Shown here in pieces: positions 423 through 32,768 of a stretch of DNA of 64,000 nt. The notes under the pieces were generated by a model that was not told where the DNA came from, ran no database searches, and saw only the letters and a program-made list of their open reading frames with translations. Position numbers and translations under genes: made by a program. Each line of letters starts with the position of its first letter. Within the stretch, counting starts at the first letter, position 1. Origin of the DNA: an uncultured Fidelibacterota bacterium (GTDB lineage Bacteria > Fidelibacterota > Marinisomatia > Marinisomatales > UBA1611); assembly GCA_913040915.1 (NCBI GenBank), contig CAJWHW010000007.1, positions 1 to 64,000 on the forward strand, given 5' to 3'.

Positions 423-446
423 TAGGCTTTGGACTTTCCAAAATCA

Positions 447-2276
447 ATGAAGCTGAAAATAAATAAGAGACTCTCTTTGAATACAGTATTAGGATTTTCA
501 CTTTTGATCTGTTCTATACTTAATGGACAGGACTATGAGTTGCGGACCTATCAGGTACCAACAACACAGGAGAGAATAAGCTCTGACTCCTTATCCCTTA
601 TGGGAAATATCGGAAGTTCCATATATCACACAAGTTCGTCTGACTCATTAAAGCTTAAAGGTGGAATGACACCGGTCATAGGCAGCTTGTTCAAAAGTCC
701 GCCGGAGCTGGCTACATTTATCAGCGACACAATCAGGAATGATGGGATGCCTGTTATTATTCGTGCCGTGGCAACGGACCTGAACGGAATAAATGGCTCT
801 ACCTTATTTATCCAGCCCGGTGGCGGAGCCCCTCTTGAGTTTCCCATGGTGGCTCTAGATGACAGTACCTTTGAAGCATCTGTCCCAGAGAGCTTACTCA
901 CCATTCGCAACTTTCGAGCTTGGGTGGTTACAGTTGATGGTATGTACTATGAAACTATAAGCCAGTATGATACGCCCAGTATGGAGTTTGGAATATCAGA
1001 ACTTTCAATGACAAATCAGTTTAGCCATTACCCGGAAGGTATAAAATCAGAAAAATGGCGGATGATATCCTGGCCAGGTGTGTTGGATAATAATGCACTC
1101 TCTTCAGATGACAAAGGGCATAGATTTTATGACTGGGATTTAACTACTAATAATTGGATAACACCCGAAACTATTGAGCCGGGAAAAGCTTACTGGTTTA
1201 AGCACAAATATTCAAGCGTACCCTTATTTGAAAATACAGAATCAGCAGGTACTGCTGTGCCACTAGTGGATTATGAAATTGAGCTACAACCAGGTTGGAA
1301 TATTATTGGCAGTCCTTTTTCATTTCCAGTTGAAGTGGATTATGACCCCAAAGAAATTTCAGGACTTTATTTATACGGACAAAACTCCCAAGATGGCTGG
1401 AGTTCACCACAGACAACCATGAAACCCTGGGCGGGTTATGCCATTAATGCAAAAATTAGTGGCCAAAGCATAACCCTTAAACCCTTCCCCGCTGAAAATG
1501 AACAGACAGACGTAGCGAGAGTAACTAAAAGTAATTGGACTATCAATCTACTCTTAGATGGAGAAGATTTCTTTGATCATAGTAATAGGATTGGTCGCCA
1601 AGATGACGCATTAGAATACGAAGATGGCTATGATGTTCCTAGCTTGCCCCATCTAGATCATTTCATAAAGATTAGTATGGATCTGAATCAGAATTCAGAC
1701 TTTAATTTTTCAAGCGATATTCGTTCTACAGATGAATTTAATGGTGTCTGGAATTTTAGGCTTAGGGGCAAAGGACATTCAAAGCCTGTGGTAGTTACTT
1801 CAAAAATTACTACTTCACTGCCAAGTATGCTTGTGGTTAAGGTTGTGGATATTCCAAATCGAACCATCTATGATCAGTTTCTTCTGACTGGAATTACTGT
1901 TAATGAAAAATTGACCGAAGGTTATGATATGAAACTGATTGCAGGAGATCAGGATTATATTGAAGAAACTGTACAGAAAATTTTATCCGAGATTCCAGAA
2001 GATTTTTCATTGAGTCAGAACTATCCCAATCCATTTAACCCTTTGACCAGGATTGATTTTACCCTACCTAGATCCGGAGATGTCTCGATTGTCATTTATA
2101 ATCTTAAAGGGCAGCAAGTTAAAACTTTAGTTGCAGAAAAAATGAAATACGGCTTTCACACCATCACCTGGAACGGTCTGGATCAGTTTGGACGGTCTGT
2201 GTCATCGGGTGTTTATTTTTCAGAAATGAGAGCAAGAGGATTTCGCCAGACAAAGAAAATGCTACTGTTGAAATGA
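447..2276 (+). CDS. Secreted protein with C-terminal T9SS type A sorting (Por secretion tail / FlgD-Ig-like) domain
   Basis: Signal peptide ending ILNG|QD; C-terminus IPEDFSLSQNYPNPFNP...IYNLKGQQVKTLV...WNG.D..G..VSSGVYF...KKMLLLK; ATG 447 preferred over TTG 429. Confidence 0.85.
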   Translation: MKLKINKRLSLNTVLGFSLLICSILNGQDYELRTYQVPTTQERISSDSLSLMGNIGSSIYHTSSSDSLKLKGGMTPVIGSLFKSPPELATFISDTIRNDGMPVIIRAVATDLNGINGSTLFIQPGGGAPLEFPMVALDDSTFEASVPESLLTIRNFRAWVVTVDGMYYETISQYDTPSMEFGISELSMTNQFSHYPEGIKSEKWRMISWPGVLDNNALSSDDKGHRFYDWDLTTNNWITPETIEPGKAYWFKHKYSSVPLFENTESAGTAVPLVDYEIELQPGWNIIGSPFSFPVEVDYDPKEISGLYLYGQNSQDGWSSPQTTMKPWAGYAINAKISGQSITLKPFPAENEQTDVARVTKSNWTINLLLDGEDFFDHSNRIGRQDDALEYEDGYDVPSLPHLDHFIKISMDLNQNSDFNFSSDIRSTDEFNGVWNFRLRGKGHSKPVVVTSKITTSLPSMLVVKVVDIPNRTIYDQFLLTGITVNEKLTEGYDMKLIAGDQDYIEETVQKILSEIPEDFSLSQNYPNPFNPLTRIDFTLPRSGDVSIVIYNLKGQQVKTLVAEKMKYGFHTITWNGLDQFGRSVSSGVYFSEMRARGFRQTKKMLLLK

Positions 2277-3415
2277 TAAAATTAAACATTATAAACATAA
2301 TTATATTTTGTTTACTATTTATAAACAAAATGAATGCCCAGTTTGCCTTGCCTACTTTTCAGGCGGTCAGTGCAAAGGATAACATAGCGCCAACCATTAC
2401 AGGCAATAGTCTGGCATCTGATAACAGCACCATCGCAATCACATTCATTGAAGCAGTTTTCAACACCAGTGGCGGAAGTGGATCGTTGCAGGTAAGTGAT
2501 TTTGAATTTTCCATCAGTGGTGGATCAGCAACACTCTCGAGTACGACACCCAGCAGCATATCCGTAAGTGGTAATACCTATACACTTGGTATTTCTTTAT
2601 CTGGGATAGCAAATGGCAGTGAGACACTAACGGTAAATCCTGTTGATGATAGCATTTATGATAAATCAGGAAATGAAGCCAGCACATCCCAGAGCAATAA
2701 TACAGCATCATTAAATGTCACTAACTACGTTATTGATTTTGATGGTAATAATGATTACGCATCCATAGCGTATAGTACTGCTTTTCAGCCAGATAACTTT
2801 ACAGTTCAAGCATGGGTCAATTTGGATGCATTTCAAAATGAAGATTATTTTGTTTACAGGCACAAAACCTGGTTCATAGGATTTAGTCGCTCTGGCACAA
2901 AAATAGAAGCTGGTGTTAGGGATGATGATGGTGACTGGCTGTATCCTAAATCAAGCACCACTCCTAGTACAAGTGGTGGCTGGTATCATGTTGTGCTTAC
3001 ATTCCAAGGAACCGGCAGTTCAACGGAATATGCAAAATTGTATATTAATGGAAGCCTCGAAGACACTGAATCCAACAATAATCATGATCTAAATTCTCAA
3101 AATACAAAAGTTTCAATGGGTGCGAAGATTAATGCCAGTAACCAAGTATCAAATTATTTCAATGGTCAGATAGATGAAGTTTCTTTTTGGAATGAAGTGC
3201 TTGCCGCAAACGAAATATCAGCATTGTATAATTCTGGGACACCTATTGATGCCAGTTCAAACAGCGGGAACTACACATCAAGTTCCGGTCTAGTTTCGTA
3301 TTATAAATTTCAACAGAACACAAACAGTGAAACAGGAAGTCACAATGCGACAAATAGCGGCGCAAGCTATTCTAATGTTACAATTAGTGGAGCTGAAGGA
3401 GAAGGAATACCCTAA
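2273..3415 (+). CDS. Secreted Ig-like + LamG/concanavalin-A-like jellyroll domain protein
   Basis: Signal peptide (..KMNA|QF); D..APTI Ig-like segment; LamG motifs FDGNNDY, FTVQAWV, WYHVVLT, KLYINGSL, FNGQIDEVSFWNEVL; ATGA overlap with the upstream gene. Confidence 0.85.
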   Translation: MIKLNIINIIIFCLLFINKMNAQFALPTFQAVSAKDNIAPTITGNSLASDNSTIAITFIEAVFNTSGGSGSLQVSDFEFSISGGSATLSSTTPSSISVSGNTYTLGISLSGIANGSETLTVNPVDDSIYDKSGNEASTSQSNNTASLNVTNYVIDFDGNNDYASIAYSTAFQPDNFTVQAWVNLDAFQNEDYFVYRHKTWFIGFSRSGTKIEAGVRDDDGDWLYPKSSTTPSTSGGWYHVVLTFQGTGSSTEYAKLYINGSLEDTESNNNHDLNSQNTKVSMGAKINASNQVSNYFNGQIDEVSFWNEVLAANEISALYNSGTPIDASSNSGNYTSSSGLVSYYKFQQNTNSETGSHNATNSGASYSNVTISGAEGEGIP

Positions 3416-3437
3416 ACTATAGAGATTTATTATTTAT

Positions 3438-3660
3438 GGACAAATTGATGAATTTACTTTCTAGAATGAATCGCATTTTTATTACTTCTTAGATAACTGC
3501 ACTATACGATAGCGGCGCTGGCCTATATACAGGTACTTATTGAGGGAGTTATACTTCTTCAGCTAATTTAGTGTGCTATCATCAGATATAAATTATCTGG
3601 GATGATAGAAATGGTAGTGGTAGTGGTAGTTGAAATGGTAGTGGTGTATGGATAGCTTAG
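3438..3660 (+). pseudogene. Decayed fragment of a second LamG-domain gene (C-terminal part)
   Basis: Manual translation gives GQIDEFTF*NE (3438-3470) and ITS*ITALYDSGAGLYTGTY*GSYTSSANLVCYHQI* (3481-3591), matching the upstream protein's GQIDEVSFWNE...EISALYNSGTPIDASSNSGNYTSSSGLVSYYKF, with stops and a frameshift. Confidence 0.75.
3608..3645. repeat. Short direct repeat GAAATGGTAGTGGT x2, overlapping (GGTAGT)x3
   Basis: Copies at 3608-3621 and 3632-3645; would encode NGSGSGS/NGSG within the LamG remnant. Confidence 0.8.
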
Positions 3661-3720
3661 AATTATAAGCTATATAATCCAGAGATATAATCAGTCTATG
3701 GAGAATCTTCTTGTTTTAAA

Positions 3721-4151
3721 GATCCCGATTTAATTGGATATATATTTGTAGCACCTTATGCTATTATTAGAAACTGGCATCTGTTCCATTCTAACAATGG
3801 ACTCTACACCCTGTGGTTACATTTTAGGTACAGATGATTCCATTACATTTTATGAAAAGTGTGAAGAAATGTGGTTTCCTAAATTTTGCAAACAATACCC
3901 ACTTCCAAAAAAGCATGAGGGCTCTTTAAAAGCTAATTATAAACGGCATCTAAATCGGGGTCATATTATTGAAAATGGGCTAAAAGATTACTCTGCCCAT
4001 TGCTCAAGGGAAAGGATCTGGTCGTAAACTAATCGAACGATTTTTGAAGCAACTACGATCCCAAGGTGTTCCTGGAGTACACCTTATTGTTAACAAAAAC
4101 AATCAAAATGCAATTGGCTTTTGTCGGAAGGTTGGTTTTCAGGAATTGTAA
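3721..4151 (+). pseudogene. Frameshifted GNAT-family N-acetyltransferase
   Basis: Three frames join: DPDLIGYIFVAPY (3721) / LETGICSILTMDSTPCGYILGTDD...DYSAH (ORF 3758..4027) / AQGKGSGRKLIERFLKQLRSQGVPGVHLIVNKNNQNAIGFCRKVGFQEL* (4002-4151), which holds the acetyl-CoA motif QGxGxG. Confidence 0.8.
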
Positions 4152-4165
4152 CTATTCAATCTAGT

Positions 4166-6505
4166 TTAAAAGTTTGCCCTGTAGTTAAGACCAAACCAAA
4201 ATTTATTTTCTGGCATCCAATCACCTTTCAGATCAGCATTCTTACTGAGCCCCGTAAATGAAATTCCAATTTCATCTGACACATTAAGATCTAATGACCA
4301 AATAGAGTTAAGACCTGTGATTGTCTGGAATGAGAATTCATAGAAAGGGACTTTAGAGATTTTAATGAAATCCATAAAAGATAACCTTTCAATGAAATTT
4401 GGTTTTTGACCAATTTGTCCAGTTATATCAAACCTAAAATAAAAAGATGTTAGATTTGTATAAGAGTTTCCTTCATCATTAAGGGATTCATAAGTATAGC
4501 TACCTGTACTATTAGAATCTACAGGTGCAGTGTAAACTTGATTAAAAAATGTTCTCTCATACAGATCCTGTCCTGCATCTATTGCTTGAATTCTAGTATC
4601 TTTCAGCCTGTGTGCTACTTTAATGAAGTGATAACCAGGTGTTGCAGTGAAACGTCCAATAAATGGAACCTTAATGGGGACCTGAACAGTAGTCGCAATT
4701 AAGGCATAACTATCAAGGATATTCAGGTTAACTGTGGAATCTTCAACTGCCTGCCATTTTGTTGTATCAGCCAATAGCTCTGGAGATGATAGCTTTTTTG
4801 AGCTTGAAGGATAAAATGTAAATCCCATTAAACCATGGAAATCAGCTTTGGTGGCAAAAAGGCTTTCAATATTCCCCCTTGCATACAGGCCTCCATAATC
4901 TGCACTGAGCAAAGATGTCTCATTATCATACCCAGTAGTCCCAATATCAAACGAGAATGGTAATCTAACACCAAATTCTGATTGGTGTGTAGCAACACCA
5001 AATTCCCCGGAACCACCAATCATACCTGGCAAACCGATCAGCTGATTCCCTACGCGCAGGTTCGCTGCATACTGCAATAGGTTTGAACGCATTGAAAGAG
5101 ATGCAAGTGAAAATTTAAAGTTACTACTATGCCAAACTGAAAATTCAGATCCATATCCAGCGATTAATCTTTCATTTTCACTCTCGTGAAAAACTGTTTC
5201 TGATGTACTATTTAAATACTGATCACGCTCTAAAAGAACATCTTGAATATCTTGACTAAAAACCCAGTCAACTTTTTCACGGTCAATAATAGTGTAATCA
5301 AGTCCGTTACCATACCAGATTTCATGAATTTCTTTGTTATTATCTTTTCTTTGAACCAAAATAATTTGATCTGTGGGTTTTAGCTCTTTAATTTGATTAG
5401 AAGACTCATCTTCATCATCAGTTCCATCAATATTTCTTAAACTCATATAGTTTAAAACGGCATCTTCCATTAGGATATGGTAAGGCTGATGATCAACAGT
5501 CCAAGATATAAATTTACGCTGATCTAAGGATTTTACTTCTGTTTCCATTTCGTCCGTTACAGTAATAGTTGCAGAACCACCAACAGATAATTTGCTATCT
5601 TTACTATCAATAATTTTATAGGCTATTTCGTAAACATTATCTTTATTTTGGTCAAGCGGATTTTCATAATCAGGCTCTTTTAAAAATGAAATGTCTCCAC
5701 CCCTTGTTATCTTAAAAACACCCTTGTCAGGACTTTCACTTAATTTAAATTTTACTCCAGACTGGTCACTATCAGGATCGTCAGCTTCTATCTTCGCTAC
5801 AATTTTTCCTGTATTCTCAGCGTGAAATAACTTTTTACTTTTAGTATTGAGTATCGGGCTTTCATTTTCATTTTCAACCTTAATGATAATGGTACCAACG
5901 AAAGACTCTTTATCTGAGTCAGAAACACGTAAGGTGATTGTGTAATTATTTTGCGATTCAAAATCAAATGCTTGTTTTGTAACAAGATTTTTTCCATCAA
6001 TCCTAAAATTATCTCTACTACCATCTCGAGCCAGCTCATAGGTAAATACATCGCCTTCATCAGGATCAGATACTACTAAGGCACCTACAACTGTACCTTC
6101 CGGTTGATTCTCTTTCACCGTATTTTTATCAAGAGTAACCGACTCTGGAGCATCGTTTACTGCATTAACATTTATTCTTACCTGTGCTATCCCATTAGCT
6201 GTACCTATATCAACCTTGTACTTAAAAACATCAATACCATTTGCATTAGCGTTTGGCGTGTAAACGATGTTTTGTCCATTGATTTCTGTAGTTCCAAATT
6301 TTGGTTGTTCCACAATTTCCAATAATAGGTTACTTTTATCTTTTATTTCATCATTTTTCAATACGCTTACAGCAATGGATCCATCTTCTGAAACCTGGGC
6401 ATTATCATTTTTTAGCGATAGACTGTTATCCTGAGCAATTAAGATAAAATTCAGCAACAGTATCCAAAATAAATTCCTTGAAATATTTATCATGTTCATA
6501 TCCAT
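4166..6505 (-). CDS. Secreted protein: N-terminal Ig-like (Big_9-type) and cadherin domains fused to a putative outer-membrane beta-rich domain
   Basis: Signal peptide (..LIA|QD); cadherin Ca motifs VNDAP, DPDEGD, FDFE, ENESP, PDYENPLD.NKDNVYE; C-terminal half has amphipathic strands and ends FWFGLNYRANF (terminal Phe). Confidence 0.7.
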   Translation of the reverse strand: MDMNMINISRNLFWILLLNFILIAQDNSLSLKNDNAQVSEDGSIAVSVLKNDEIKDKSNLLLEIVEQPKFGTTEINGQNIVYTPNANANGIDVFKYKVDIGTANGIAQVRINVNAVNDAPESVTLDKNTVKENQPEGTVVGALVVSDPDEGDVFTYELARDGSRDNFRIDGKNLVTKQAFDFESQNNYTITLRVSDSDKESFVGTIIIKVENENESPILNTKSKKLFHAENTGKIVAKIEADDPDSDQSGVKFKLSESPDKGVFKITRGGDISFLKEPDYENPLDQNKDNVYEIAYKIIDSKDSKLSVGGSATITVTDEMETEVKSLDQRKFISWTVDHQPYHILMEDAVLNYMSLRNIDGTDDEDESSNQIKELKPTDQIILVQRKDNNKEIHEIWYGNGLDYTIIDREKVDWVFSQDIQDVLLERDQYLNSTSETVFHESENERLIAGYGSEFSVWHSSNFKFSLASLSMRSNLLQYAANLRVGNQLIGLPGMIGGSGEFGVATHQSEFGVRLPFSFDIGTTGYDNETSLLSADYGGLYARGNIESLFATKADFHGLMGFTFYPSSSKKLSSPELLADTTKWQAVEDSTVNLNILDSYALIATTVQVPIKVPFIGRFTATPGYHFIKVAHRLKDTRIQAIDAGQDLYERTFFNQVYTAPVDSNSTGSYTYESLNDEGNSYTNLTSFYFRFDITGQIGQKPNFIERLSFMDFIKISKVPFYEFSFQTITGLNSIWSLDLNVSDEIGISFTGLSKNADLKGDWMPENKFWFGLNYRANF

Positions 6506-6511
6506 AATAAT

Positions 6512-8245
6512 TTAAAAATTGACAGTTATATAAGGAGAGATTAATAGAGTTCCACCACCATCTCCTAATTCATCGGGCCTACTGCCAGGATACCACTGCC
6601 ATTTACTTTCCGAATCACGTTTATCTGTAAATTCGATATAAGAATTATTTGGATATAACGTACAATCAATTCCTAGATTAACCATTTTATAGACGTTATG
6701 CTCCAGTCCAAAACTGTAAGCCTTAAATCCATTACCAGATACATTAAGCTGAACGAATGCTTTTGTATTTTTTGTATCTGTGACCCCTTCTACTTTTGCA
6801 TAAAAACCGATTGAATTTGTACCGGTGACTCGGTCTGTTATGCTGATATCATTTTTTTCATCAATCACACCGTGAACTATTTGCGCAAAAGATAAACCAG
6901 CTTTTAAACGCATTGAAGCAAATGCTTCACTTATTTTTAATTCTTTTCCCTTGCCTTTTCTTGCAACAATATCAGTTGTGGCAACTTTGAGAAGTTGTTG
7001 ATCTGCTGCAATAAGAGTCTCTAATGGTACCATCAATAATTCTTCACCATCCCATTTTAGACCATCCAAAAATTCTTGATCTTTTTCTGAAAGGTCTGTT
7101 AGTTTAAACACCATCTGAAATTCATCACTTTTTCTAAGAAGTACGACTTGGTTTTTATCCCTTTCCTGAAGAATTGCTTCTACAGTTCCTCCAGATTTTT
7201 TAGTCCAGACTCTTCCTTTTGCAGCTGCATTATGATCTTTTTCATTCCTATCCACTGCAATAGCTACGTTACCATCTTTCAAGCTTCTAAAGATTCCGGA
7301 GTAACTTTCATCTCCTATCGACCAGGTACGTGACTTTGTAACAATCTTTTTTGCTTCAGCTTTTTCTTTTTTCTGCTTTTTTAATTTTTTACCATAACTG
7401 GTATCAACCTTCCTGTTAATTTGGAAAGTGTTGCTCCAATACATTAGCCCACTGCTTGCAGGAAAAACCATATGCTTACGGCTATACACCTTTTCCCATT
7501 CATACTCTTCTCCATCAATATTCATATAATTGACCTGTCCACCAAGCATATGAGTATCAAACTTGAAACCAAATCCTATATTCCCTTCCAGTGGATGACC
7601 AATTCCATTCAAAACAGATTCCGTATTACCTGGAATGATGAGGTAGGTGCTGACCATGTCATTGGATAAACCCAATAATAGGTTTTCTGATAATTGGCGA
7701 CTGAAACCAAGATCAGCGAAACCTTGCTCAATTCGTAATGCCAGGTTGCTGCTTTTTTGCCGGATGAATATCTTTAATGACGAACTTGCACTGATTTGTG
7801 AGTTCGACCACCAGAATGCATCCCTGGCATCTTTGAAACTGCGTTCTTTAAAAATATTATCAACAGTACTGAATTCTTCTAATTCAGATAGGTCTTCTCT
7901 GCTTGCATCCTTCCACTTGTATTCTCTATCTAATATAGTATTTAACTGGAACGGATCCATTTTCCCTACTTCATCCATCATGAATGACTGATACTCACCC
8001 ATTTGGTAATTTTTGGCTTTCAGCTTTCTAAGCTCAACCTTATCATCCATGGCTTCAACATGAACAATAATTGAATGAGAAGCCTGGATCGTATTCTCTT
8101 CAAACTTATCAACTTCAATAAGACGATTGATATAAGCTTCAATGAACTCACTGTTGACAATTGGATCTGCCACTTCCCAGTACAAGGATTCCTGCGCCAT
8201 AAGGCCAGTTCCTAAGAGAATGATCAAAATCCTTAATTTCATCAT
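6512..8245 (-). CDS. Putative outer-membrane protein with inserted SHD1-like domains
   Basis: Signal peptide MMKLRILIILLGTGLMA|QE (start at 8245 avoids overlap); SHD1-like motif RVWTKKSGGTVEA...VVLLRKSD...FKLTDLSEKDQEFL; ends LISPYITVNF. Confidence 0.6.
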   Translation of the reverse strand: MMKLRILIILLGTGLMAQESLYWEVADPIVNSEFIEAYINRLIEVDKFEENTIQASHSIIVHVEAMDDKVELRKLKAKNYQMGEYQSFMMDEVGKMDPFQLNTILDREYKWKDASREDLSELEEFSTVDNIFKERSFKDARDAFWWSNSQISASSSLKIFIRQKSSNLALRIEQGFADLGFSRQLSENLLLGLSNDMVSTYLIIPGNTESVLNGIGHPLEGNIGFGFKFDTHMLGGQVNYMNIDGEEYEWEKVYSRKHMVFPASSGLMYWSNTFQINRKVDTSYGKKLKKQKKEKAEAKKIVTKSRTWSIGDESYSGIFRSLKDGNVAIAVDRNEKDHNAAAKGRVWTKKSGGTVEAILQERDKNQVVLLRKSDEFQMVFKLTDLSEKDQEFLDGLKWDGEELLMVPLETLIAADQQLLKVATTDIVARKGKGKELKISEAFASMRLKAGLSFAQIVHGVIDEKNDISITDRVTGTNSIGFYAKVEGVTDTKNTKAFVQLNVSGNGFKAYSFGLEHNVYKMVNLGIDCTLYPNNSYIEFTDKRDSESKWQWYPGSRPDELGDGGGTLLISPYITVNF

Positions 8246-8249
8246 TTTA

Positions 8250-9689
8250 TTAATCATAATATTCAAACTCATTATCAGAAATAGACTCTGCTTTATATTT
8301 ATCTACTACTTTGATTTTAATTTCTGTAGTAGAGCCAAACTGAGGTTCATCCAGCTCAAAACTGTATTTTACAACACGTCGATTTCCAACTCTTTTTTCA
8401 GGTTGCTCTTCCTCCAGTTTTCCGTAAACGCCAGAAAGAGGGACAACAGCCTTTTTACCATTTTTATTCCCATAGGTTGTAACCGTTAGGAGCAGGTTAT
8501 TAGAGCCTTTACCCAACCTTTTGAACTCAAGTTTAGGTGGCGGTATTTTCCTTACCTTTACTTCATGGGCTAGGCCTTTGACCTTATTCCCATCAACAAA
8601 TGTTTCGAATTTGACTTTACCTCTCTTTTTTGGCTTAAAGGCAGCTTCATAAGAATCAAATGTCTTTGCATTCACTGCTGAACCGGATATTTTTACGGAA
8701 ATTCTATCTCGGTCAACGTCTTTGACCCGACTATCAAACACATATTTTTCACCAATATAGATTTCTTTATCCTCAGATGGTGAACTGTATTTTGGATCAA
8801 CTACAATAATACGGGCAGAAGTGATACTGGATTTTTTATCGCGCTTACGAAGGCCCACCACTTCTACTGTGCCATTACTTGTACCTTTTCCTCTAATGAA
8901 AGCACGTGGCAAGCCAGAAACAAGTTCCTTCACTAAATCTTTTCCACTTGCAAGTTCAACATCAAAGTCTGCATCTGTATTTACACCGCCTACACTAAAT
9001 GGGATCTCCCAATTGAGACCGCGAAGAACAGTATATTTTTTCTTATCAAAAAGAACAAAAAATTCAGATTGCTGACCATCCATATATATAAGAGTGACCG
9101 GTGTATCAAATTCCCGATTAATTGTAAAACTTCCTTCCCTGGAAACTTCACCATTAATAATCTTTAACAACTTATCAGTTACCTTATAATCACCAAATGC
9201 TTCAGACCATTGATTGTATGTAGTTGTATCAATATCCGGTATAAATTGTACAGCTAGATCAACATCGAAGGGTTGGTTAAGATAATTTTCTTCTACAGAG
9301 CTTAGTTCAACCTTGGCTACATAACGATTGTTATTGCCTTCTTGTGCATATGGCTCCACTGTCACATTTTCTAGCTCCCAGTCATAGGTCTCATCCACCT
9401 TTACACTTTCGCCTTCAATTTCCACAATTGGCGTGGTAAAACTGGGATTGAATTTGATTGAGCCTTGTTCATACTCCCCTTCCACATCAAAAAAGAGTTG
9501 GTAGTAATCTGGATCTTCATAATTTGACTCAACATTACTGATTTCAACCAGGGTCTGGAGTTTATCCTGCGCGACATTTTTTAAAATGTCATCCTGTCTC
9601 TGCATGTAGATTGAAAGTTCACCTTCAATCGCAAATAAACTTAAGATAGCTCCTAAGTTGATTAGGAAATAAACTTCAACTTTTTTCAT
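8250..9689 (-). CDS. Divergent GldM/PorM-like single-pass inner-membrane protein with a long beta-rich periplasmic region
   Basis: One N-terminal TM helix (VYFLINLGAILSLFAI); C-terminal segment IYIGEKY...VKDVDRDRISVKISG...KPKKRGKVKF...VKVRKIPPP resembles the GldM distal domains as recalled; lies directly after the gldL-like gene. Confidence 0.55.
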   Translation of the reverse strand: MKKVEVYFLINLGAILSLFAIEGELSIYMQRQDDILKNVAQDKLQTLVEISNVESNYEDPDYYQLFFDVEGEYEQGSIKFNPSFTTPIVEIEGESVKVDETYDWELENVTVEPYAQEGNNNRYVAKVELSSVEENYLNQPFDVDLAVQFIPDIDTTTYNQWSEAFGDYKVTDKLLKIINGEVSREGSFTINREFDTPVTLIYMDGQQSEFFVLFDKKKYTVLRGLNWEIPFSVGGVNTDADFDVELASGKDLVKELVSGLPRAFIRGKGTSNGTVEVVGLRKRDKKSSITSARIIVVDPKYSSPSEDKEIYIGEKYVFDSRVKDVDRDRISVKISGSAVNAKTFDSYEAAFKPKKRGKVKFETFVDGNKVKGLAHEVKVRKIPPPKLEFKRLGKGSNNLLLTVTTYGNKNGKKAVVPLSGVYGKLEEEQPEKRVGNRRVVKYSFELDEPQFGSTTEIKIKVVDKYKAESISDNEFEYYD

Positions 9690-9699
9690 AATTTATTAC

Positions 9700-10098
9700 C
9701 TAATTCTTGATTGCTTTTGATAAAATCTCGTTCACCTCTTTCCTGACTTCTTCACGCACTTTTCCACTGGCTAAATTGGACAGTCCTTCACCCATTTCTG
9801 CAACTTTAATAACAGCAGCTGTCAATTCTGAAATCTCCTTGCTGTCCATATCAGCAACACTGGCACTGGTTGTCTTGGCACTCCCTCCGTCAGGACCGAG
9901 ATTATAGATACTCTGTGCATAAAGTAGCAAAAGAAAAAACTCCAAAATCAACGCACCTATTGAAAGATAGGTCATTACGCCAATATGATCCGGGTCCAAT
10001 GTGGCTATGATTGATCGGAATCCTACAATCACAAGTAAAAATGCTGCACCGCCGTAAACCATAGCTGTTCTGGCGTTCATATCTGATCTAATTTTCAT
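9700..10098 (-). CDS. Short GldL/PorL-like motor subunit (2 TM helices + short cytoplasmic helix)
   Basis: TM1 MVYGGAAFLLVIVGFR and TM2 LSIGALILEFFLLLLYA parallel GldL YGMGAAVVIVGALFK / LSIGLLTEALIF, including the intramembrane Glu (E53 here). Confidence 0.65.
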   Translation of the reverse strand: MKIRSDMNARTAMVYGGAAFLLVIVGFRSIIATLDPDHIGVMTYLSIGALILEFFLLLLYAQSIYNLGPDGGSAKTTSASVADMDSKEISELTAAVIKVAEMGEGLSNLASGKVREEVRKEVNEILSKAIKN

Positions 10099-10122
10099 TT
10101 TATTCCCTTTTATTATTTTAAA

Positions 10123-12054
10123 TTATTCTGAAACTTCAATAGAATAATCGAAAGATGTTGTTGCCCCACAGTCTGCCGCTTGAACTCTTACGTTGTGAGT
10201 TCCGATGTATGTTGAATCCGGCGGTGTGCCATAAAGCCTGTATTGTGAATAATTGATTGATAACCAATTTGGTTTTGTAGGCACAGTAAATTCAATCGCA
10301 TCACTATTATCATCATTTATAGCAAACTGAAAACTATACTCTTGTCCCACATTTGCAGTAGTATCAACTGATCCGGAATTGGTGAATTCAGGAGCAAAAT
10401 TTTCATCTACACTGATTGTGAAAGTGAAGGTAGTATCTTTTGGCACATTCGGACGATTATCTGTAATAGTTAATGAAATATTTCCACTGGACCCGATATC
10501 ACTATCTGATGGTGTTCCAGATAAAACACCGCTACTATTTATATTCATCCAACTCACATTATTATCATATGTAAGAGTTACATTATCACCATCGGGGTCA
10601 GACCAGTTCACATCATAATAATACTGGCAACCGTGATTGATACTTTCTATAATATTATTTGTGTTGGAAAAAGTCGGGGTGTCATTGGGGTCAACAGTAA
10701 TTGTGAAGTCTTGAGTTGTAGATAATGGGTAACCATTCCTGTTATCATTTAATGTTAAACTAAAAGTAATTTCCTGATTAACATAAGACGTTGGGAGGTA
10801 ACCTGATACTGTCCCATAAGTACCGCTTGAATTTGGAGTAAATGTTAATTCATCTACTAAGTCAGTTACTACTACTTCCAAAGTAGAATAATCCACACTA
10901 TTCGGATCAGTCCAGTAGATTATCCATGATAAGTTTCTTTCCTCTTCCCAATCATCCTGATAATCAGATGTAGTAAAGTATGGTTCTTGATTTGGTTTTA
11001 CAAAAATACTAAAAGTTTGTTTTAATGTATCAGGATCCACTGGCCTATTATCAATTAATGTTATATCAAACTCTACATAGTTTTCCGCATAGTCGTGTGG
11101 GATTGTGCCAGAAACTTTGCAAGAAGTGGCAGAGTTCTGTTCAAATGATAGTTCGTATGAATTCCATTCTATAGTGGCAGTAACTACATCAAATGAATTA
11201 GGGTCACTAAAATTTATAGTCCATGAATCTGCTATCAATTCATCCCATTCTTCTTCAAAACTTGATGAAAATACAGGCGCACTATTGTCTCTTACATTGA
11301 GATTGAATTCCTTGGTAATGAATAATCCACCTTCATCTGTAAGTTTTAAACTAAAGGATAGATTAGGGTTTGCAGAATCAGGAGTGCCTACAAGTTTATT
11401 TCCATTCACTGAAATCCAATCAGGATTATTGACCAATGTCAATGTAGAATTATACGTTAAATCAGTATCTCCCCATTTTATTTCACCTGACTCATAGGGG
11501 ATTCCTATGTCGGCTAAGCCAGAGTATACATTAGAATTATCCCAAGTTGGGTTTTCATTCACATTTGTTATCTCTACGCTAACTGTAAGTGAGCCCTTTT
11601 CTTCACTAGGGCTATCATCTGTAACCTCCATTAATACGTCGCACTGAGTACTAGCTCCATTTTGCGAATGGAGTGCTTCATAATTAATATTCGCACTCTC
11701 CAAGAGTACAAGTTTCCAAGCTCCTGAAGAATCTTGTAAAATAGTAAAAATGTTTCTGTCATTCCCATTAATTGTTTGGGATTTTATTACAACAGATTTT
11801 ATTTCATCATCAGGATTGATGTCATCTACTTCAATAGTACCAATTGTAGTGCTCGTACCTTCCTGATCTTCTGGGAGCTGCCCTACATTATTATCATTAA
11901 AACTAATATCCCATTCAATACTGCCTTTGGGTTCACCAGGCTCGAGGACCTGAGTATTGCCTGGTAAATCAAGTTCGACATCTTCACAACTAATTATAAA
12001 AAGATAAATGATTAATGATATAAGTTTTTTAAAATGGTTTGATTTTAGTCTCAT
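10123..12054 (-). CDS. Lipoprotein with about 6 tandem cadherin-like / He_PIG-type Ig domains
   Basis: Lipobox-like IISC after a hydrophobic stretch; recurring linkers VNENP, DNSAP, PNQEP, PNDTP, ENFAP; (F/W)(S/T)DP(N/D) and DNR motifs; W....G.LSGTP. Confidence 0.8.
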   Translation of the reverse strand: MRLKSNHFKKLISLIIYLFIISCEDVELDLPGNTQVLEPGEPKGSIEWDISFNDNNVGQLPEDQEGTSTTIGTIEVDDINPDDEIKSVVIKSQTINGNDRNIFTILQDSSGAWKLVLLESANINYEALHSQNGASTQCDVLMEVTDDSPSEEKGSLTVSVEITNVNENPTWDNSNVYSGLADIGIPYESGEIKWGDTDLTYNSTLTLVNNPDWISVNGNKLVGTPDSANPNLSFSLKLTDEGGLFITKEFNLNVRDNSAPVFSSSFEEEWDELIADSWTINFSDPNSFDVVTATIEWNSYELSFEQNSATSCKVSGTIPHDYAENYVEFDITLIDNRPVDPDTLKQTFSIFVKPNQEPYFTTSDYQDDWEEERNLSWIIYWTDPNSVDYSTLEVVVTDLVDELTFTPNSSGTYGTVSGYLPTSYVNQEITFSLTLNDNRNGYPLSTTQDFTITVDPNDTPTFSNTNNIIESINHGCQYYYDVNWSDPDGDNVTLTYDNNVSWMNINSSGVLSGTPSDSDIGSSGNISLTITDNRPNVPKDTTFTFTISVDENFAPEFTNSGSVDTTANVGQEYSFQFAINDDNSDAIEFTVPTKPNWLSINYSQYRLYGTPPDSTYIGTHNVRVQAADCGATTSFDYSIEVSE

Positions 12055-12330
12055 AGATTATTTTAACTTTTAATTTTTTGGGAAATGATAGTATTCAAAC
12101 CTTAGAAATAATCCAATAAACATACTGTATTGGAAAGTTTTCGCCAATTTTACTTTCATTCGACGAAAGACTATTGAAAATTGTTTGAATTACCAATCCT
12201 TACCTCGATAACTAAATGAAATTTAATGTGCATCTATCATAAATAGGGGAAAAAGTATTGTCCATAAATAAAAGAAATAATTCTTTAATTGCTATAAAAT
12301 TCTAAAAACTGAAACTACTAGAAAGAAAAT

Positions 12331-13167
12331 TTAATCTCTGAATTTGGCACCTACAGGAGGTCGGTAAGCCTGAAAAGGAATTAATATTAAATTTTTTAAA
12401 CTTGAATGCTCCCGTACTTCCAGATGGGTGTCAATACCGTACTCTAATTCATCTATTTTTCGATGAGAAGTAGTAGAAAAAAGATGATCCCAAATGGAAA
12501 ATATATTACCATAGTTCGAATCTGTATCCGGCAATATGTAATGATGATGAATTTTGTGGAAATGGGGCGTAACAAAGATCCAGGATAAAGGTTTATCCAA
12601 CCATCCAGGTACTTGAATATTAGCATGAGTCAGGGCAGCAAAAAAGGCTGAAATAGTCTGGTACAGCATAACAAGGCCAAAAGACGCACCTGTAATCAAT
12701 ACCGCTAGAGTTGTAAATAGGAGACGGAAAATATTTTCGCCGGGATGGTGACGGAGACCTGTGGTCACATCTACATTAGTATCAGTATGATGTATTAAAT
12801 GGAATTTCCACATCCATTTTACCTTGTGTTCCAGCCAGTGAATGAGCCAGGCTCCAATTAAATCTAAAAGAACCAATCCAGCAATCACATAAGCCCATAA
12901 GGGAAATTGAATCCAGTTTAATATACCGGATTGATTAGATTGGCCAAAATTAACTGCAGACACAATCAGGGATGCCCCGATGAGATTTATGAGGAGTGTA
13001 ATGAGCGTAAAAGTTAGGTTAATTCTTGCATGTTTAAGTTTATTGTAATCCATCTGAAAAAGAGGGGCAATTGCTTCCAGAGATAGAAATAAGCCTAATC
13101 CGCTAATCAGAAAAATGGATCTTGTTGATGAAGGAACTGTTTCGAAAAAAGTCAGGAGTTCCTGCAT
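12331..13167 (-). CDS. Sterol desaturase / fatty acid hydroxylase family membrane di-iron enzyme
   Basis: His boxes HWLEH, HLIHH, RHHP, HAN, HKIHH; DSNYGNIFSIWD.LF. Confidence 0.9.
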   Translation of the reverse strand: MQELLTFFETVPSSTRSIFLISGLGLFLSLEAIAPLFQMDYNKLKHARINLTFTLITLLINLIGASLIVSAVNFGQSNQSGILNWIQFPLWAYVIAGLVLLDLIGAWLIHWLEHKVKWMWKFHLIHHTDTNVDVTTGLRHHPGENIFRLLFTTLAVLITGASFGLVMLYQTISAFFAALTHANIQVPGWLDKPLSWIFVTPHFHKIHHHYILPDTDSNYGNIFSIWDHLFSTTSHRKIDELEYGIDTHLEVREHSSLKNLILIPFQAYRPPVGAKFRD

Positions 13168-31925: not shown

Positions 31926-32768
31926 ATGGTAAAAAGAGTCACAATCATTTTTCTTTTTCTTACTGCTAATTTGGCTGCCCAATTTGGTTCCGTTGATATC
32001 AATTTTGACACACGTCTACTCCGTAGTAATGAGAAGCAGGAGATTGTTAATCTCCAAAGTGATATACAGCGTTTTTTCTTAACCACAAGTTGGGACGAAT
32101 CATACAGTGATTTGGAAATTCATCTCCATATCCAATTGGTCTTTGAAGGTATTACAGCAAAAGGGAATGAAAAAATATTCAGTTGCCAAGCTTTATTTTC
32201 CAATGGTAGCGACATTCGTTTTTTTGATAAAAGTGTGCAATTCATTTATAATTCAGGGTCCAGTCTTTACTTTGACCCAGTACTTTTTGAACCTTTATCT
32301 GGATTTCTCGCTTATTATGCACATTTAGTATTAGGGGGAGAAATTGATACCTACGAATTCAATGGAGGAAATATTGCATATGAAGCAGCCCGGGATATTG
32401 CCCTTCGCGGATCAGCTTCATTATATAAGAAAGGGTGGGGCAATCGAATAACTTTAGTGGACGATATAAATCGAAACATAGGATTGCGTAAAGCTCGTCT
32501 TGCTTGGTACATTGCCATGGATTTATTTAAAGATGGTGAATTAGAAGGAACTATTACAGAAATAAATAATATGCTGGATGGCATTGAACAATCATATAGG
32601 GATTTAGGTAGAGATCACCATACCCAGTATTTTTTAAAAGTTCAATCAGGCCCCATAGCCAGAATTTTGGCTATGATGGGACGGAGAGAATTATTAATGG
32701 ATATGAAAGAATTAGACCCTGATCGACGGGATTTTTATCAGGAAGCCTTAGACTCGATTTCAAAATAA
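31926..32768 (+). CDS. DUF4835-family protein (T9SS PorD-like)
   Basis: Signal peptide (..LAA|QF); FFD....F.Y....L.F....F..L...LAYYA..VLG...DTY..NGG..Y..A......A.....GW pattern recalled for DUF4835. Confidence 0.7.
   Translation: MVKRVTIIFLFLTANLAAQFGSVDINFDTRLLRSNEKQEIVNLQSDIQRFFLTTSWDESYSDLEIHLHIQLVFEGITAKGNEKIFSCQALFSNGSDIRFFDKSVQFIYNSGSSLYFDPVLFEPLSGFLAYYAHLVLGGEIDTYEFNGGNIAYEAARDIALRGSASLYKKGWGNRITLVDDINRNIGLRKARLAWYIAMDLFKDGELEGTITEINNMLDGIEQSYRDLGRDHHTQYFLKVQSGPIARILAMMGRRELLMDMKELDPDRRDFYQEALDSISK

Follow-up and report, generated by a model that had tools for sequence, protein, structure and literature searches.

A conserved four-gene envelope cassette of Marinimicrobia with architectural likeness to the GldLM motor

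Marinimicrobia carry a conserved unit of four genes, P0002 to P0005, which encode a predicted inner-membrane hairpin protein, a bitopic protein with a long periplasmic part and two putative outer-membrane barrels. Their order and strand are the same in 48 of 60 related loci, the remaining 12 being cut by contig ends, an arrangement far beyond chance. We find it plausible that this cassette encodes an accessory, so far unannotated trans-envelope machine of the phylum, one that is probably ion-driven; since the cassette as such matches no known family, a motor role can only be inferred.

A four-gene unit and its distribution

The initial annotation described five tightly packed, co-oriented genes in the window, by which we mean the whole stretch of 64,000 nucleotides that was analysed, and five minus-strand ORFs are indeed found there (Table 1). 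The gaps P0001/P0002, P0002/P0003 and P0004/P0005 measure 24, 10 and 6 nt; P0003 overlaps the longest P0004 ORF by 23 nt, or is separated from P0004 by 4 nt when the tenth codon (Met) is taken as the start of the latter. The protein features that had been read from the sequence are visible as well: YGGAA and an intramembrane Glu in P0002 (Y15-G-G-A-A and E53, in two hydrophobic segments), a single N-terminal hydrophobic segment in P0003, followed in its AF2 model by four beta domains, and signal-like hydrophobic starts in P0004 and P0005, whose termini (...VNF and ...ANF) carry the Phe with which outer-membrane barrels commonly end. Contigs from RNA libraries (at least 95% identity; four runs, four studies) cover parts of all five genes, and those at 9235-10363 and 7746-8284 cross gene junctions, which by itself proves neither transcription nor a single transcript.

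Table 1. Genes of the cassette and the adjoining lipoprotein gene, with positions in the window
Gene	Position	Strand	Product	Source
P0001	10123..12054	-	643 aa; putative lipoprotein	ORF list
P0002	9700..10098	-	132 aa; inner-membrane hairpin protein	ORF list
P0003	8250..9689	-	479 aa; bitopic protein	ORF list
P0004	6512..8272	-	586 aa; secreted protein, putative outer-membrane beta-barrel	ORF list
P0005	4166..6505	-	779 aa; secreted protein, putative outer-membrane barrel	ORF list

The 48 intact loci bear out the idea of a conserved, tightly packed envelope cassette, with P0002-like and P0003-like genes spaced 3-40 nt apart across loci (median 9). Of the proposed five-gene order, however, only the four genes from P0002 to P0005 are kept and form the conserved unit: P0001 lies upstream in 24 of the 60 loci, all within the clade in which the P0003 homologue shows 65% identity or more, and is an accessory to the cassette that is confined to that clade. 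Its product has a lipobox-like FIISC (Cys23) and Ig-like or dystroglycan-type repeats; in Pfam it finds only a sub-threshold match to Sarcoglycan_2, and its orthologue at L049:5918-7561 matches He_PIG (PF05345) at 4.4e-24. It had been called a cadherin-repeat lipoprotein, but the significant cadherin matches (PF00028, 1.5e-19) sit in the N terminus of P0005.

About one in seven of the sampled phylum genomes has the cassette, 21 of 151 when P0003 is the query and 22 of 151 with a profile of the P0002-family TM region, as do 10 of the 95 high-quality genomes in the sample. Of two genomes belonging to the same family, one lacks it. To date the cassette has been met in Marinimicrobia alone, and the genes that flank it differ from clade to clade.

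The inner-membrane pair and its likeness to GldLM

By hydropathy, P0002 has two TM helices at about residues 9-36 and 38-67, which carry Y15-GGAA, R28, E53 and Y60 and lead into a coiled-coil tail, predicted to be cytoplasmic and variable in length across 44 relatives. In these relatives Y15, A18, A19, L21, G26 and L57 are invariant, and R28, E53, F54 and Y60 are conserved in at least 90%; against the far clade, identity is 49.6% in TM1 and 60.1% in TM2 versus 23.2% in the tail. The N-terminal TM helix of P0003 is hyper-conserved (K/R-x-VEVYF...AIEGE), with 97.5% identity versus 36.7% for the rest of the protein among 15 mid-clade sequences and 64.6% versus 22.4% among 18 far-clade sequences. 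Its conserved polar residues are a basic K/R3, the invariant Glu E5, Y7 and an E22-G-E24 motif. The AF2 model of P0003 (pLDDT 78.7) shows helices at residues 4-17 and 22-45, then four beta-sandwich domains (about 48-200, 207-297, 309-380 and 386-476), and on this model the protein is a four-domain rod. The membrane helices are thus the best-conserved parts of both proteins, with conserved polar residues inside them, and the near-invariant Glu, Arg and Tyr at these places suggest a functional intramembrane interface or an ion path.

But how close is this pair to GldL and GldM (PorL and PorM), which in Bacteroidota form the proton-driven motor behind type 9 secretion and gliding? In the published account of GldLM on which we draw, GldL has two TMHs and a cytoplasmic tail, GldM has one TMH and four domains that span the periplasm, the first of them (D1) a helical domain above the TMH, and the residues singled out are E49 (TMH2, an invariant Glu) and Y13 (TMH1, a conserved Tyr) of GldL and R9 and Y17 of GldM. 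P0002 has the two TM helices and tail of GldL, P0003 the N-terminal TMH and, in its AF2 model, the four periplasmic domains of GldM, and in both systems the two genes are adjacent. E53 and Y15 of P0002 may correspond to GldL E49 and Y13, to judge by the helix in which each lies, and K/R3 and Y7 of P0003 recall GldM R9 and Y17, each pair combining a basic residue with a Tyr on an axle-like helix. In contrast to GldM, the P0003 helix also bears the invariant Glu E5, and where GldM has its helical D1 the model of P0003 has just one helix of 24 residues ahead of its beta domains.

The initial annotation spoke of recognisable, divergent homologues of GldL and GldM, a view that the profile and structure comparisons did not support: no GldL or GldM profile recognised P0002, P0003 or, among the families listed, the 44 diverse relatives. 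P0002 has no match in Pfam or NCBIfam at E <= 1, GldL is absent from the best 25 of 108 families listed for the 44 relatives, and PF22827 does not match the 19 most divergent of them at E <= 1. Profiles of the full P0002 family and of its TM region alone, with which every sequence in the PDB was searched at E <= 10, retrieved no GldL or PorL chain, only coiled-coil or chance matches. P0003 and five distant orthologues do not match the GldM families (TIGR03517, PF12081, PF12080), and the P0003 model resembles generic tandem Ig proteins (Foldseek against the PDB; VIA-align), with no GldM or PorM among 50 matches listed, a comparison in which single-domain matches may be missed as the model exceeds 400 residues. 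The likeness of P0002 to GldL is architectural and lies in the buried Glu and Tyr of the hairpin; for the cassette as a whole, membership in the GldL/GldM families is not demonstrable and the likeness is again one of architecture.

A looser comparison is with the 5:2 ion-driven stators ExbB-ExbD-TonB, TolQ-TolR-TolA and MotAB, inner-membrane complexes that pass PMF energy over the periplasm to barrels of the outer membrane. MotB, ExbD and TolR have an Asp near the cytoplasmic end of their single-pass helix, and E5 of P0003 lies at the same helix end. However, the ring subunits of the ExbB, TolQ and MotA systems have three or four helices and P0002 has two, the periplasmic part of P0003 is modelled as an Ig rod and not as a TonB- or OmpA-like domain, and no cassette protein matched these families in the Pfam and NCBIfam scans.

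The outer-membrane barrels

P0004 consists of a conserved N-terminal periplasmic domain and a predicted barrel that spans about residues 150-586, with a clade-specific insert at about 292-445. In VIA-align the barrel of its AF2 model (pLDDT 77.9) matches 6h3i_F, a chain of PorV size from the T9SS translocon entry 6h3i (Z 12.1, rmsd 4.3, 212 aligned), in a tie with the FadL homologue 3dwo (Z 11.8), TodX (Z 11.3) and FadL (Z 11.2); Foldseek finds TodX at 4.8e-5, with low TM-scores of 0.17-0.24. P0004 has no Pfam family match, and the model points to a FadL/PorV-type fold. P0005 has clade-specific repeats at about residues 30-320, where Big_9 (8.2e-13) is found along with the cadherin matches; they are joined to a conserved core of some 450 aa, and core-only homologues (412-466 aa) are found in other clades. 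An hhalign comparison of the two families (Prob 94.2%, E 1.1e-7, 231 columns) identifies the barrel part of P0005 as a distant paralogue of P0004.

Both proteins end in Phe, and P0004, with P0005 through its barrel part, shares the fold class of the 14-stranded barrels FadL, TodX and PorV. Unlike those families, each has a large conserved N-terminal domain, and the P0004 barrel has no sequence-family match. The PorV model NF033710 matches six places elsewhere in the genome (best 1.7e-38) and none in the window, where PorP/SprF (TIGR03519) is likewise not found. The outer-membrane partners are unlike GldK and GldN, as had been proposed: the Pfam and NCBIfam scans found neither an FGE-sulfatase lipoprotein nor GldN in the cassette, which has two barrels of predicted FadL/PorV fold in the position of the GldK/GldN ring. 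Mapping the genes onto K, L, M and N slots nevertheless misleads, since P0001, the lipoprotein gene upstream, is confined to one clade and the downstream pair encodes paralogous barrels.

Possible functions of the cassette

The genome of the source organism, which is 85% complete, was searched with profiles. SprA is present, divided between two contig ends, and there are 55 matches to TIGR04183, the C-terminal sorting domain of the T9SS, of which the sole one in the contig region (C7:2022-2264) lies outside the cassette; no match falls inside it, and P0001 to P0005 do not present themselves as T9SS cargo. GldL (TIGR03513) and GldM (TIGR03517) gave no matches at E <= 10, the former in a six-frame search without a control genome that has a true GldL, and neither PF12080 nor GldN (TIGR03523) was found. 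Two candidates were rejected: a PF12081 match at E 0.03 is a chance hit to a tRNA-synthetase-like ORF on another contig, as its N-terminal sequence indicates, and a GldK candidate on contig C35 (TIGR03525, 135 bits against a 350-bit cut-off) has no Cys in its N-terminal hydrophobic stretch. This FGE-sulfatase protein, not a lipoprotein, stands alone, and the opposite-strand ORFs beside it are not gld-like by sequence. No canonical gldK, gldL, gldM or gldN was thus found elsewhere in the genome, at its 85% completeness, in line with the initial annotation. Among the 151 sampled genomes of the phylum, 149 have SprA, none gives a GldM match and none a GldL_N match over the cut-off, again without a positive control genome.

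One alternative is that the cassette is the missing, extremely divergent GldLM of this organism, energising the SprA-dependent export of CTD cargo, with P0004 and P0005 in place of the GldK/GldN ring or of PorV/PorP-type shuttles. SprA, the 55 CTD matches, the absence of GldL, GldM and GldN matches beside a sub-threshold GldK, the same lack of GldM matches, and of GldL_N matches over the cut-off, across the phylum sample, and the top rank of 6h3i among the P0004 matches all speak for it. We nevertheless regard it as unlikely. With SprA in 149 and the cassette in 21-22 of the 151 genomes, most T9SS-bearing relatives do without the cassette, and it is therefore not a motor on which the T9SS relies throughout the phylum; no T9SS gene adjoins it in any clade examined, PorV has its six matches elsewhere, FadL and TodX tie with 6h3i as matches of the barrel, and the GldL/GldM searches behind the apparent gap were run without a positive control genome. 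A further alternative, for which the FadL-like matches of P0004 speak, is energised uptake of large or hydrophobic substrates, in which the rod would open two FadL-type channels and the inner-membrane pair would act as ExbBD-TonB. Phosphodiesterase and sulfatase genes lie near the cassette in several loci, and a gene with a TonB_C domain is directly upstream of it in one clade (same GTDB family as G080; loci L041 and L090). However, known FadL-type channels normally need no energy input, nothing in the cassette matches ExbB, ExbD or TolQR, and the TonB_C neighbour is limited to that clade and the flanking genes vary between clades; we hold uptake to be quite improbable.

Does the cassette move anything at all? 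P0002 and P0003 could simply anchor an Ig rod to two barrels, as a passive envelope-spanning scaffold, tether or sensor without ion-driven movement; possible roles would be holding the membranes together, displaying Ig/cadherin adhesins or signalling inward through the coiled-coil tail. The lack of detectable kinship to any motor family, the plain Ig-like domains of the periplasmic part, the cadherin and He_PIG adhesin-type modules added in this clade and the coiled-coil tail of variable length are all consistent with such a role. On the other hand, simple anchors rarely show 65-97% identity in their membrane helices against 22-37% in the remainder, and the near-invariant Glu, Arg and Tyr occur in the helices of both inner-membrane partners, so that we view a passive scaffold as somewhat doubtful.

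We favour the reading as an accessory, probably ion-driven machine. P0002 and P0003 would form an inner-membrane complex with buried carboxylates that pick up an ion (H+ or Na+) and let it go again. The movement that results would travel through the periplasmic rod of P0003 to both outer-membrane barrels, where it could power a step such as gating, transport or the shifting of a component at the surface. In this picture the binding of the ion, the oligomeric state and the contact of P0003 with the barrels are all inferred. Such a mode of working would resemble that of GldLM/PorLM and, more loosely, that of ExbBD-TonB, and in this clade the machine may have gained Ig/cadherin modules through the P0001 lipoprotein and the N terminus of P0005.

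More tentatively, the cassette may represent an unrecognised class of ion-driven trans-envelope motor, in which a ring of two-helix subunits and a single-helix axle, both with buried carboxylates, turn or push an Ig rod against a pair of FadL/PorV-type barrels. Such a motor could be a deeply branching sister of GldLM, older than the GldK/GldN ring, or could have arisen independently. If this is true, it would offer a tractable way to learn how phyla other than Bacteroidota that have SprA supply energy to processes at the outer membrane.

A conserved four-gene unit

Between 4166 and 12054, five minus-strand open reading frames follow one another with short spacers, bearing out the observation of the initial annotation. 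The spacers within the run are 24, 10 and 6 nt, and a 23-nt overlap of P0003 and P0004 becomes a 4-nt gap with a start at the tenth codon of P0004. The lipoprotein P0001 begins with a lipobox-like FIISC, P0002 carries Y15-GGAA and E53 in its two hydrophobic segments, and P0003 has a single hydrophobic segment at its N terminus, while P0004 and P0005 both start with a signal-like segment and end in Phe. The lipoprotein had been described as a cadherin protein, an assignment that has to be moved: the significant Pfam PF00028 matches (1.5e-19) sit in the N terminus of P0005, with none such in P0001, which instead carries He_PIG-type Ig repeats that are clear in its orthologue at L049:5918-7561 (4.4e-24).

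Genes of the cassette and other genes of the window named in the text
Gene	Position	Strand	Length (aa)	Product
P0001	10123-12054	-	643	lipoprotein
P0002	9700-10098	-	132	two-helix membrane hairpin
P0003	8250-9689	-	479	bitopic membrane protein
P0004	6512-8272	-	586	outer-membrane barrel
P0005	4166-6505	-	779	outer-membrane barrel
	429-2276	+	615	FlgD_ig / T9SS C-terminal sorting domain protein
	2273-3415			Laminin_G_3 protein
	31926-32768	+		DUF4835 protein, envelope-related
	33803-36751	-	982	TMEM260-like protein, envelope-related; PF11028 (Pfam: protein O-mannosyl-transferase family)

Conservation of the gene order was followed in 60 loci, obtained by scanning the P0003 alignment against one genome per species. 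Homologues of P0002-P0005 are complete, with order and strand kept, in 48 of them, and a contig end cuts the remaining 12; in related loci 3-40 nt (median 9) separate the P0002-like gene from the P0003-like one. A P0001 homologue lies upstream in only 24 of the 60, every one a member of the clade with P0003 homologues of 65% identity or more, and in other clades this slot is filled by unrelated genes, which encode a TonB_C protein or a thioesterase or belong to no family. The cadherin N terminus of P0005 is likewise clade-specific, its homologues elsewhere measuring 412-466 aa. Because both features are confined in this way, the conserved cassette is one of four genes, to which the Ig and cadherin modules are an addition of the window's clade. 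The names attached to the 60 loci are of Marinimicrobia type or uninformative, apart from two labelled Lentisphaeria, and close homologues carry Marinimicrobia or Neomarinimicrobiota names. A search of metagenome contigs with a distant P0002-like subfamily gave no confirmed relative.

One genome carries two copies of the cassette (G080:C95:33670-35814 and G080:C64:6175-8064), whose P0002-like proteins measure 276 and 178 aa. In one clade, a 296-aa protein with TonB_C near its N terminus (residues 53-128) adjoins the P0002-like gene upstream (L090:6370-7260, L041:5076-5966). Upstream of the cassette in a clade of 42-46% identity stand five co-oriented genes (L079:3039-7414), which encode proteins of 137 and 242 aa, a 273-aa ParA/MinD-like ATPase and proteins of 476 and 326 aa; four of the five have no Pfam match. 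Finally, at G059:C6:8281-8439, in a genome without a P0003 match, the P0002-family transmembrane profile matches (7.1e-13) an open frame just 80 aa long, possibly a remnant or else a hairpin gene standing alone.

Metatranscriptome contigs of at least 95% identity, from four runs of four studies, cover parts of all five genes. One of them (9235-10363) crosses the P0003/P0002 and P0002/P0001 junctions and another (7746-8284) the P0004/P0003 junction, with the reservation that RNA libraries can contain DNA and that genes joined on one contig need not share a transcript. Stretches without cover, such as 10478-10740 in all four runs, are uninformative. Scanning 3400-12700 for promoters and terminators did no better than scanning shuffled sequence (40 promoter-like matches against 35.8, 6 terminator-like against 4.8).

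P0002 and P0003 compared with GldL and GldM

The likeness of P0002 and P0003 to GldLM lies in their architecture and in their pattern of conservation. The published description (10.1101/2020.05.11.089193) gives GldL two transmembrane helices and a long cytoplasmic tail, and GldM one transmembrane helix and four periplasmic domains in a 180 Å rod, the first of these domains being helical; P0003 differs in having no such helical domain. Its AlphaFold2 model (pLDDT 78.7) consists of two helices (4-17 and 22-45) followed by four beta-sandwich domains.

In both families conservation is highest in the membrane helices. For P0003, the helix is 97.5% identical against 36.7% for the rest of the protein in a clade of intermediate distance (n=15), and 64.6% against 22.4% in a far clade (n=18); in the far clade of P0002 (n=17), TM1 and TM2 reach 49.6% and 60.1%, and the tail 23.2%. 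Y15 of P0002 is invariant, and R28, E53, F54 and Y60 are kept at 90% or more. The P0003 helix follows the pattern K/R-x-V-E-V-Y-F...A-I-E-G-E, of which E5, Y7, F8, E22, G23 and E24 do not vary among 23 sequences and are visibly kept across the 60 loci. Plain membrane anchors rarely show helices so much better conserved than the rest, and the pattern fits mutually packed helices with functional buried charges.

The initial annotation went further and took the two proteins for recognisable, if divergent, homologues of GldL and GldM, a view that the sequence searches do not uphold. Neither protein has a Pfam or NCBIfam match at E <= 1. A search of 1.84 billion representatives returned 59 relatives of P0002; GldL is absent among the matches listed in an NCBIfam scan of 44 diverse ones, and the 19 most divergent have no match to GldL_N (PF22827) at E <= 1. 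Profiles of the whole P0002 family and of its two-helix region, searched at E <= 10 in the full set of PDB sequences, retrieved designed coiled coils or a pair of chance hits and no GldL or PorL chain. Five distant P0003 orthologues have no family match either. At the level of fold, where a resemblance of P0003 to GldM or PorM had been proposed for checking, Foldseek and VIA-align paired the model with generic tandem Ig proteins, with no GldM or PorM among the matches listed, and in the ESM Atlas P0003 and the core of P0005 each retrieved only the cluster they belong to or, at scores under 0.9, clusters that are unnamed or of Ig domains. Predicting a complex of four P0002(1-75) and two P0003(1-60) chains gave ipSAE values of 0.01 and 0.01, where the mark is 0.32, in a run whose controls were not folded; these values speak neither for nor against binding. 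By every sequence test available, P0002 and P0003 do not come out as homologues of GldL and GldM.

Outer-membrane barrels and type IX secretion

The barrel part of P0004 spans approximately residues 150-586 of its AlphaFold2 model (pLDDT 77.9). Its structural matches are tied: 6h3i_F, a PorV-sized chain from the PDB entry of the T9SS translocon, at Z 12.1 (rmsd 4.3 over 212 residues), a homologue of FadL at Z 11.8, TodX at Z 11.3 and FadL itself at Z 11.2; Foldseek lists TodX at 4.8e-5 with low TM-scores. The PorV HMM matches neither P0004 nor P0005. BLASTP finds nothing between the two barrels, whose kinship is visible by profile-profile comparison only: hhalign aligns 231 columns of the barrel part at 94.2% probability (E 1.1e-7), and on this profile evidence they are distant paralogues, each with its own conserved N-terminal domain rich in invariant residues. 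A clade-specific barrel-loop insert in P0004 (approximately residues 292-445; window 7080-7400) holds a helix and small beta domains; other clades, whose homologues measure 421-476 aa, lack it. P0004 residues 351-408 resemble Sla1 homology domain 1, an SH3-like fold (Z 8.1, rmsd 2.0).

We searched the genome (1.86 Mb, 71 contigs, 85% complete) for the T9SS genes that bear on the proposal of a motor without GldK and GldN. At this completeness, it has no GldL, GldM, GldN or PorP match. The best GldK score, 135 bits against a cut-off of 350, belongs to an FGE-sulfatase protein that stands alone and whose hydrophobic N-terminal stretch lacks a Cys. PF12081 matches by chance at C19:13642-13833, in a frame whose N-terminal sequence reads as threonyl-tRNA-synthetase-like. 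SprA is present, split across two contig ends (G000:C14:60-3008 and G000:C25:28900-31923), which is an assembly break and not necessarily a broken gene; the PorV model matches in six places, all outside the window, and the T9SS C-terminal sorting domain has 55 matches. The 615-aa protein with such a domain (TIGR04183, C7:2022-2264), just outside the cassette on the opposite strand and adjoined by the Laminin_G_3 protein, is a probable T9SS cargo.

Across 151 genomes of the phylum, SprA occurs in 149 (95/95 of high quality), P0003 in 21 (10/95) and the P0002-family transmembrane profile in 22, and the cassette is therefore accessory and cannot be the general T9SS motor of the phylum. Most matches to the cassette come from a single GTDB family (16 of its 26 genomes); of the two further genomes in the family to which the window belongs, one gives no match. 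In searches run without a positive control, GldM (TIGR03517) was found in 0/151 genomes and GldL_N (PF22827) in 0/151 over the cut-off, so that no recognisable GldLM-type T9SS motor appears in the phylum at the level of these models; one weak PF22827 match, in a secreted barrel-like frame of G123, is a chance hit. A literature search found no printed description of how the T9SS is energised in Marinimicrobia.

Readings of the cassette

What the analysis establishes directly is the four-gene unit, its topology and domain make-up, the conserved buried polar residues, and the fold and paralogy of the barrels. We read this cassette as an energised trans-envelope machine, a proposal to which we give about an even chance. 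P0002 and P0003 would assemble as an inner-membrane complex whose carboxylates would bind and release an ion, and the P0003 rod would carry the resulting movement to the two barrels; transport, secretion, gating and surface movement are candidate outputs.

A passive scaffold or a sensor is a reading that we regard as rather unlikely; against it stands the conservation of the helices, so far above that of the remainder of their proteins. That the cassette drives the T9SS is improbable, its presence in 21-22 of 151 genomes standing against 149 for SprA. A TonB-like uptake system is, in our estimate, very doubtful.

Only a few ion-driven motors of the envelope are known, namely MotAB, ExbBD/TolQR, GldLM and ZorAB, and every newly found one has opened a field. 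Marinimicrobia abound in the interior of the ocean. With only four genes, the cassette is small enough for expression, purification and imaging. Combining a GldLM-like architecture with other outer-membrane partners, it could be a relative or an analogue of GldLM.
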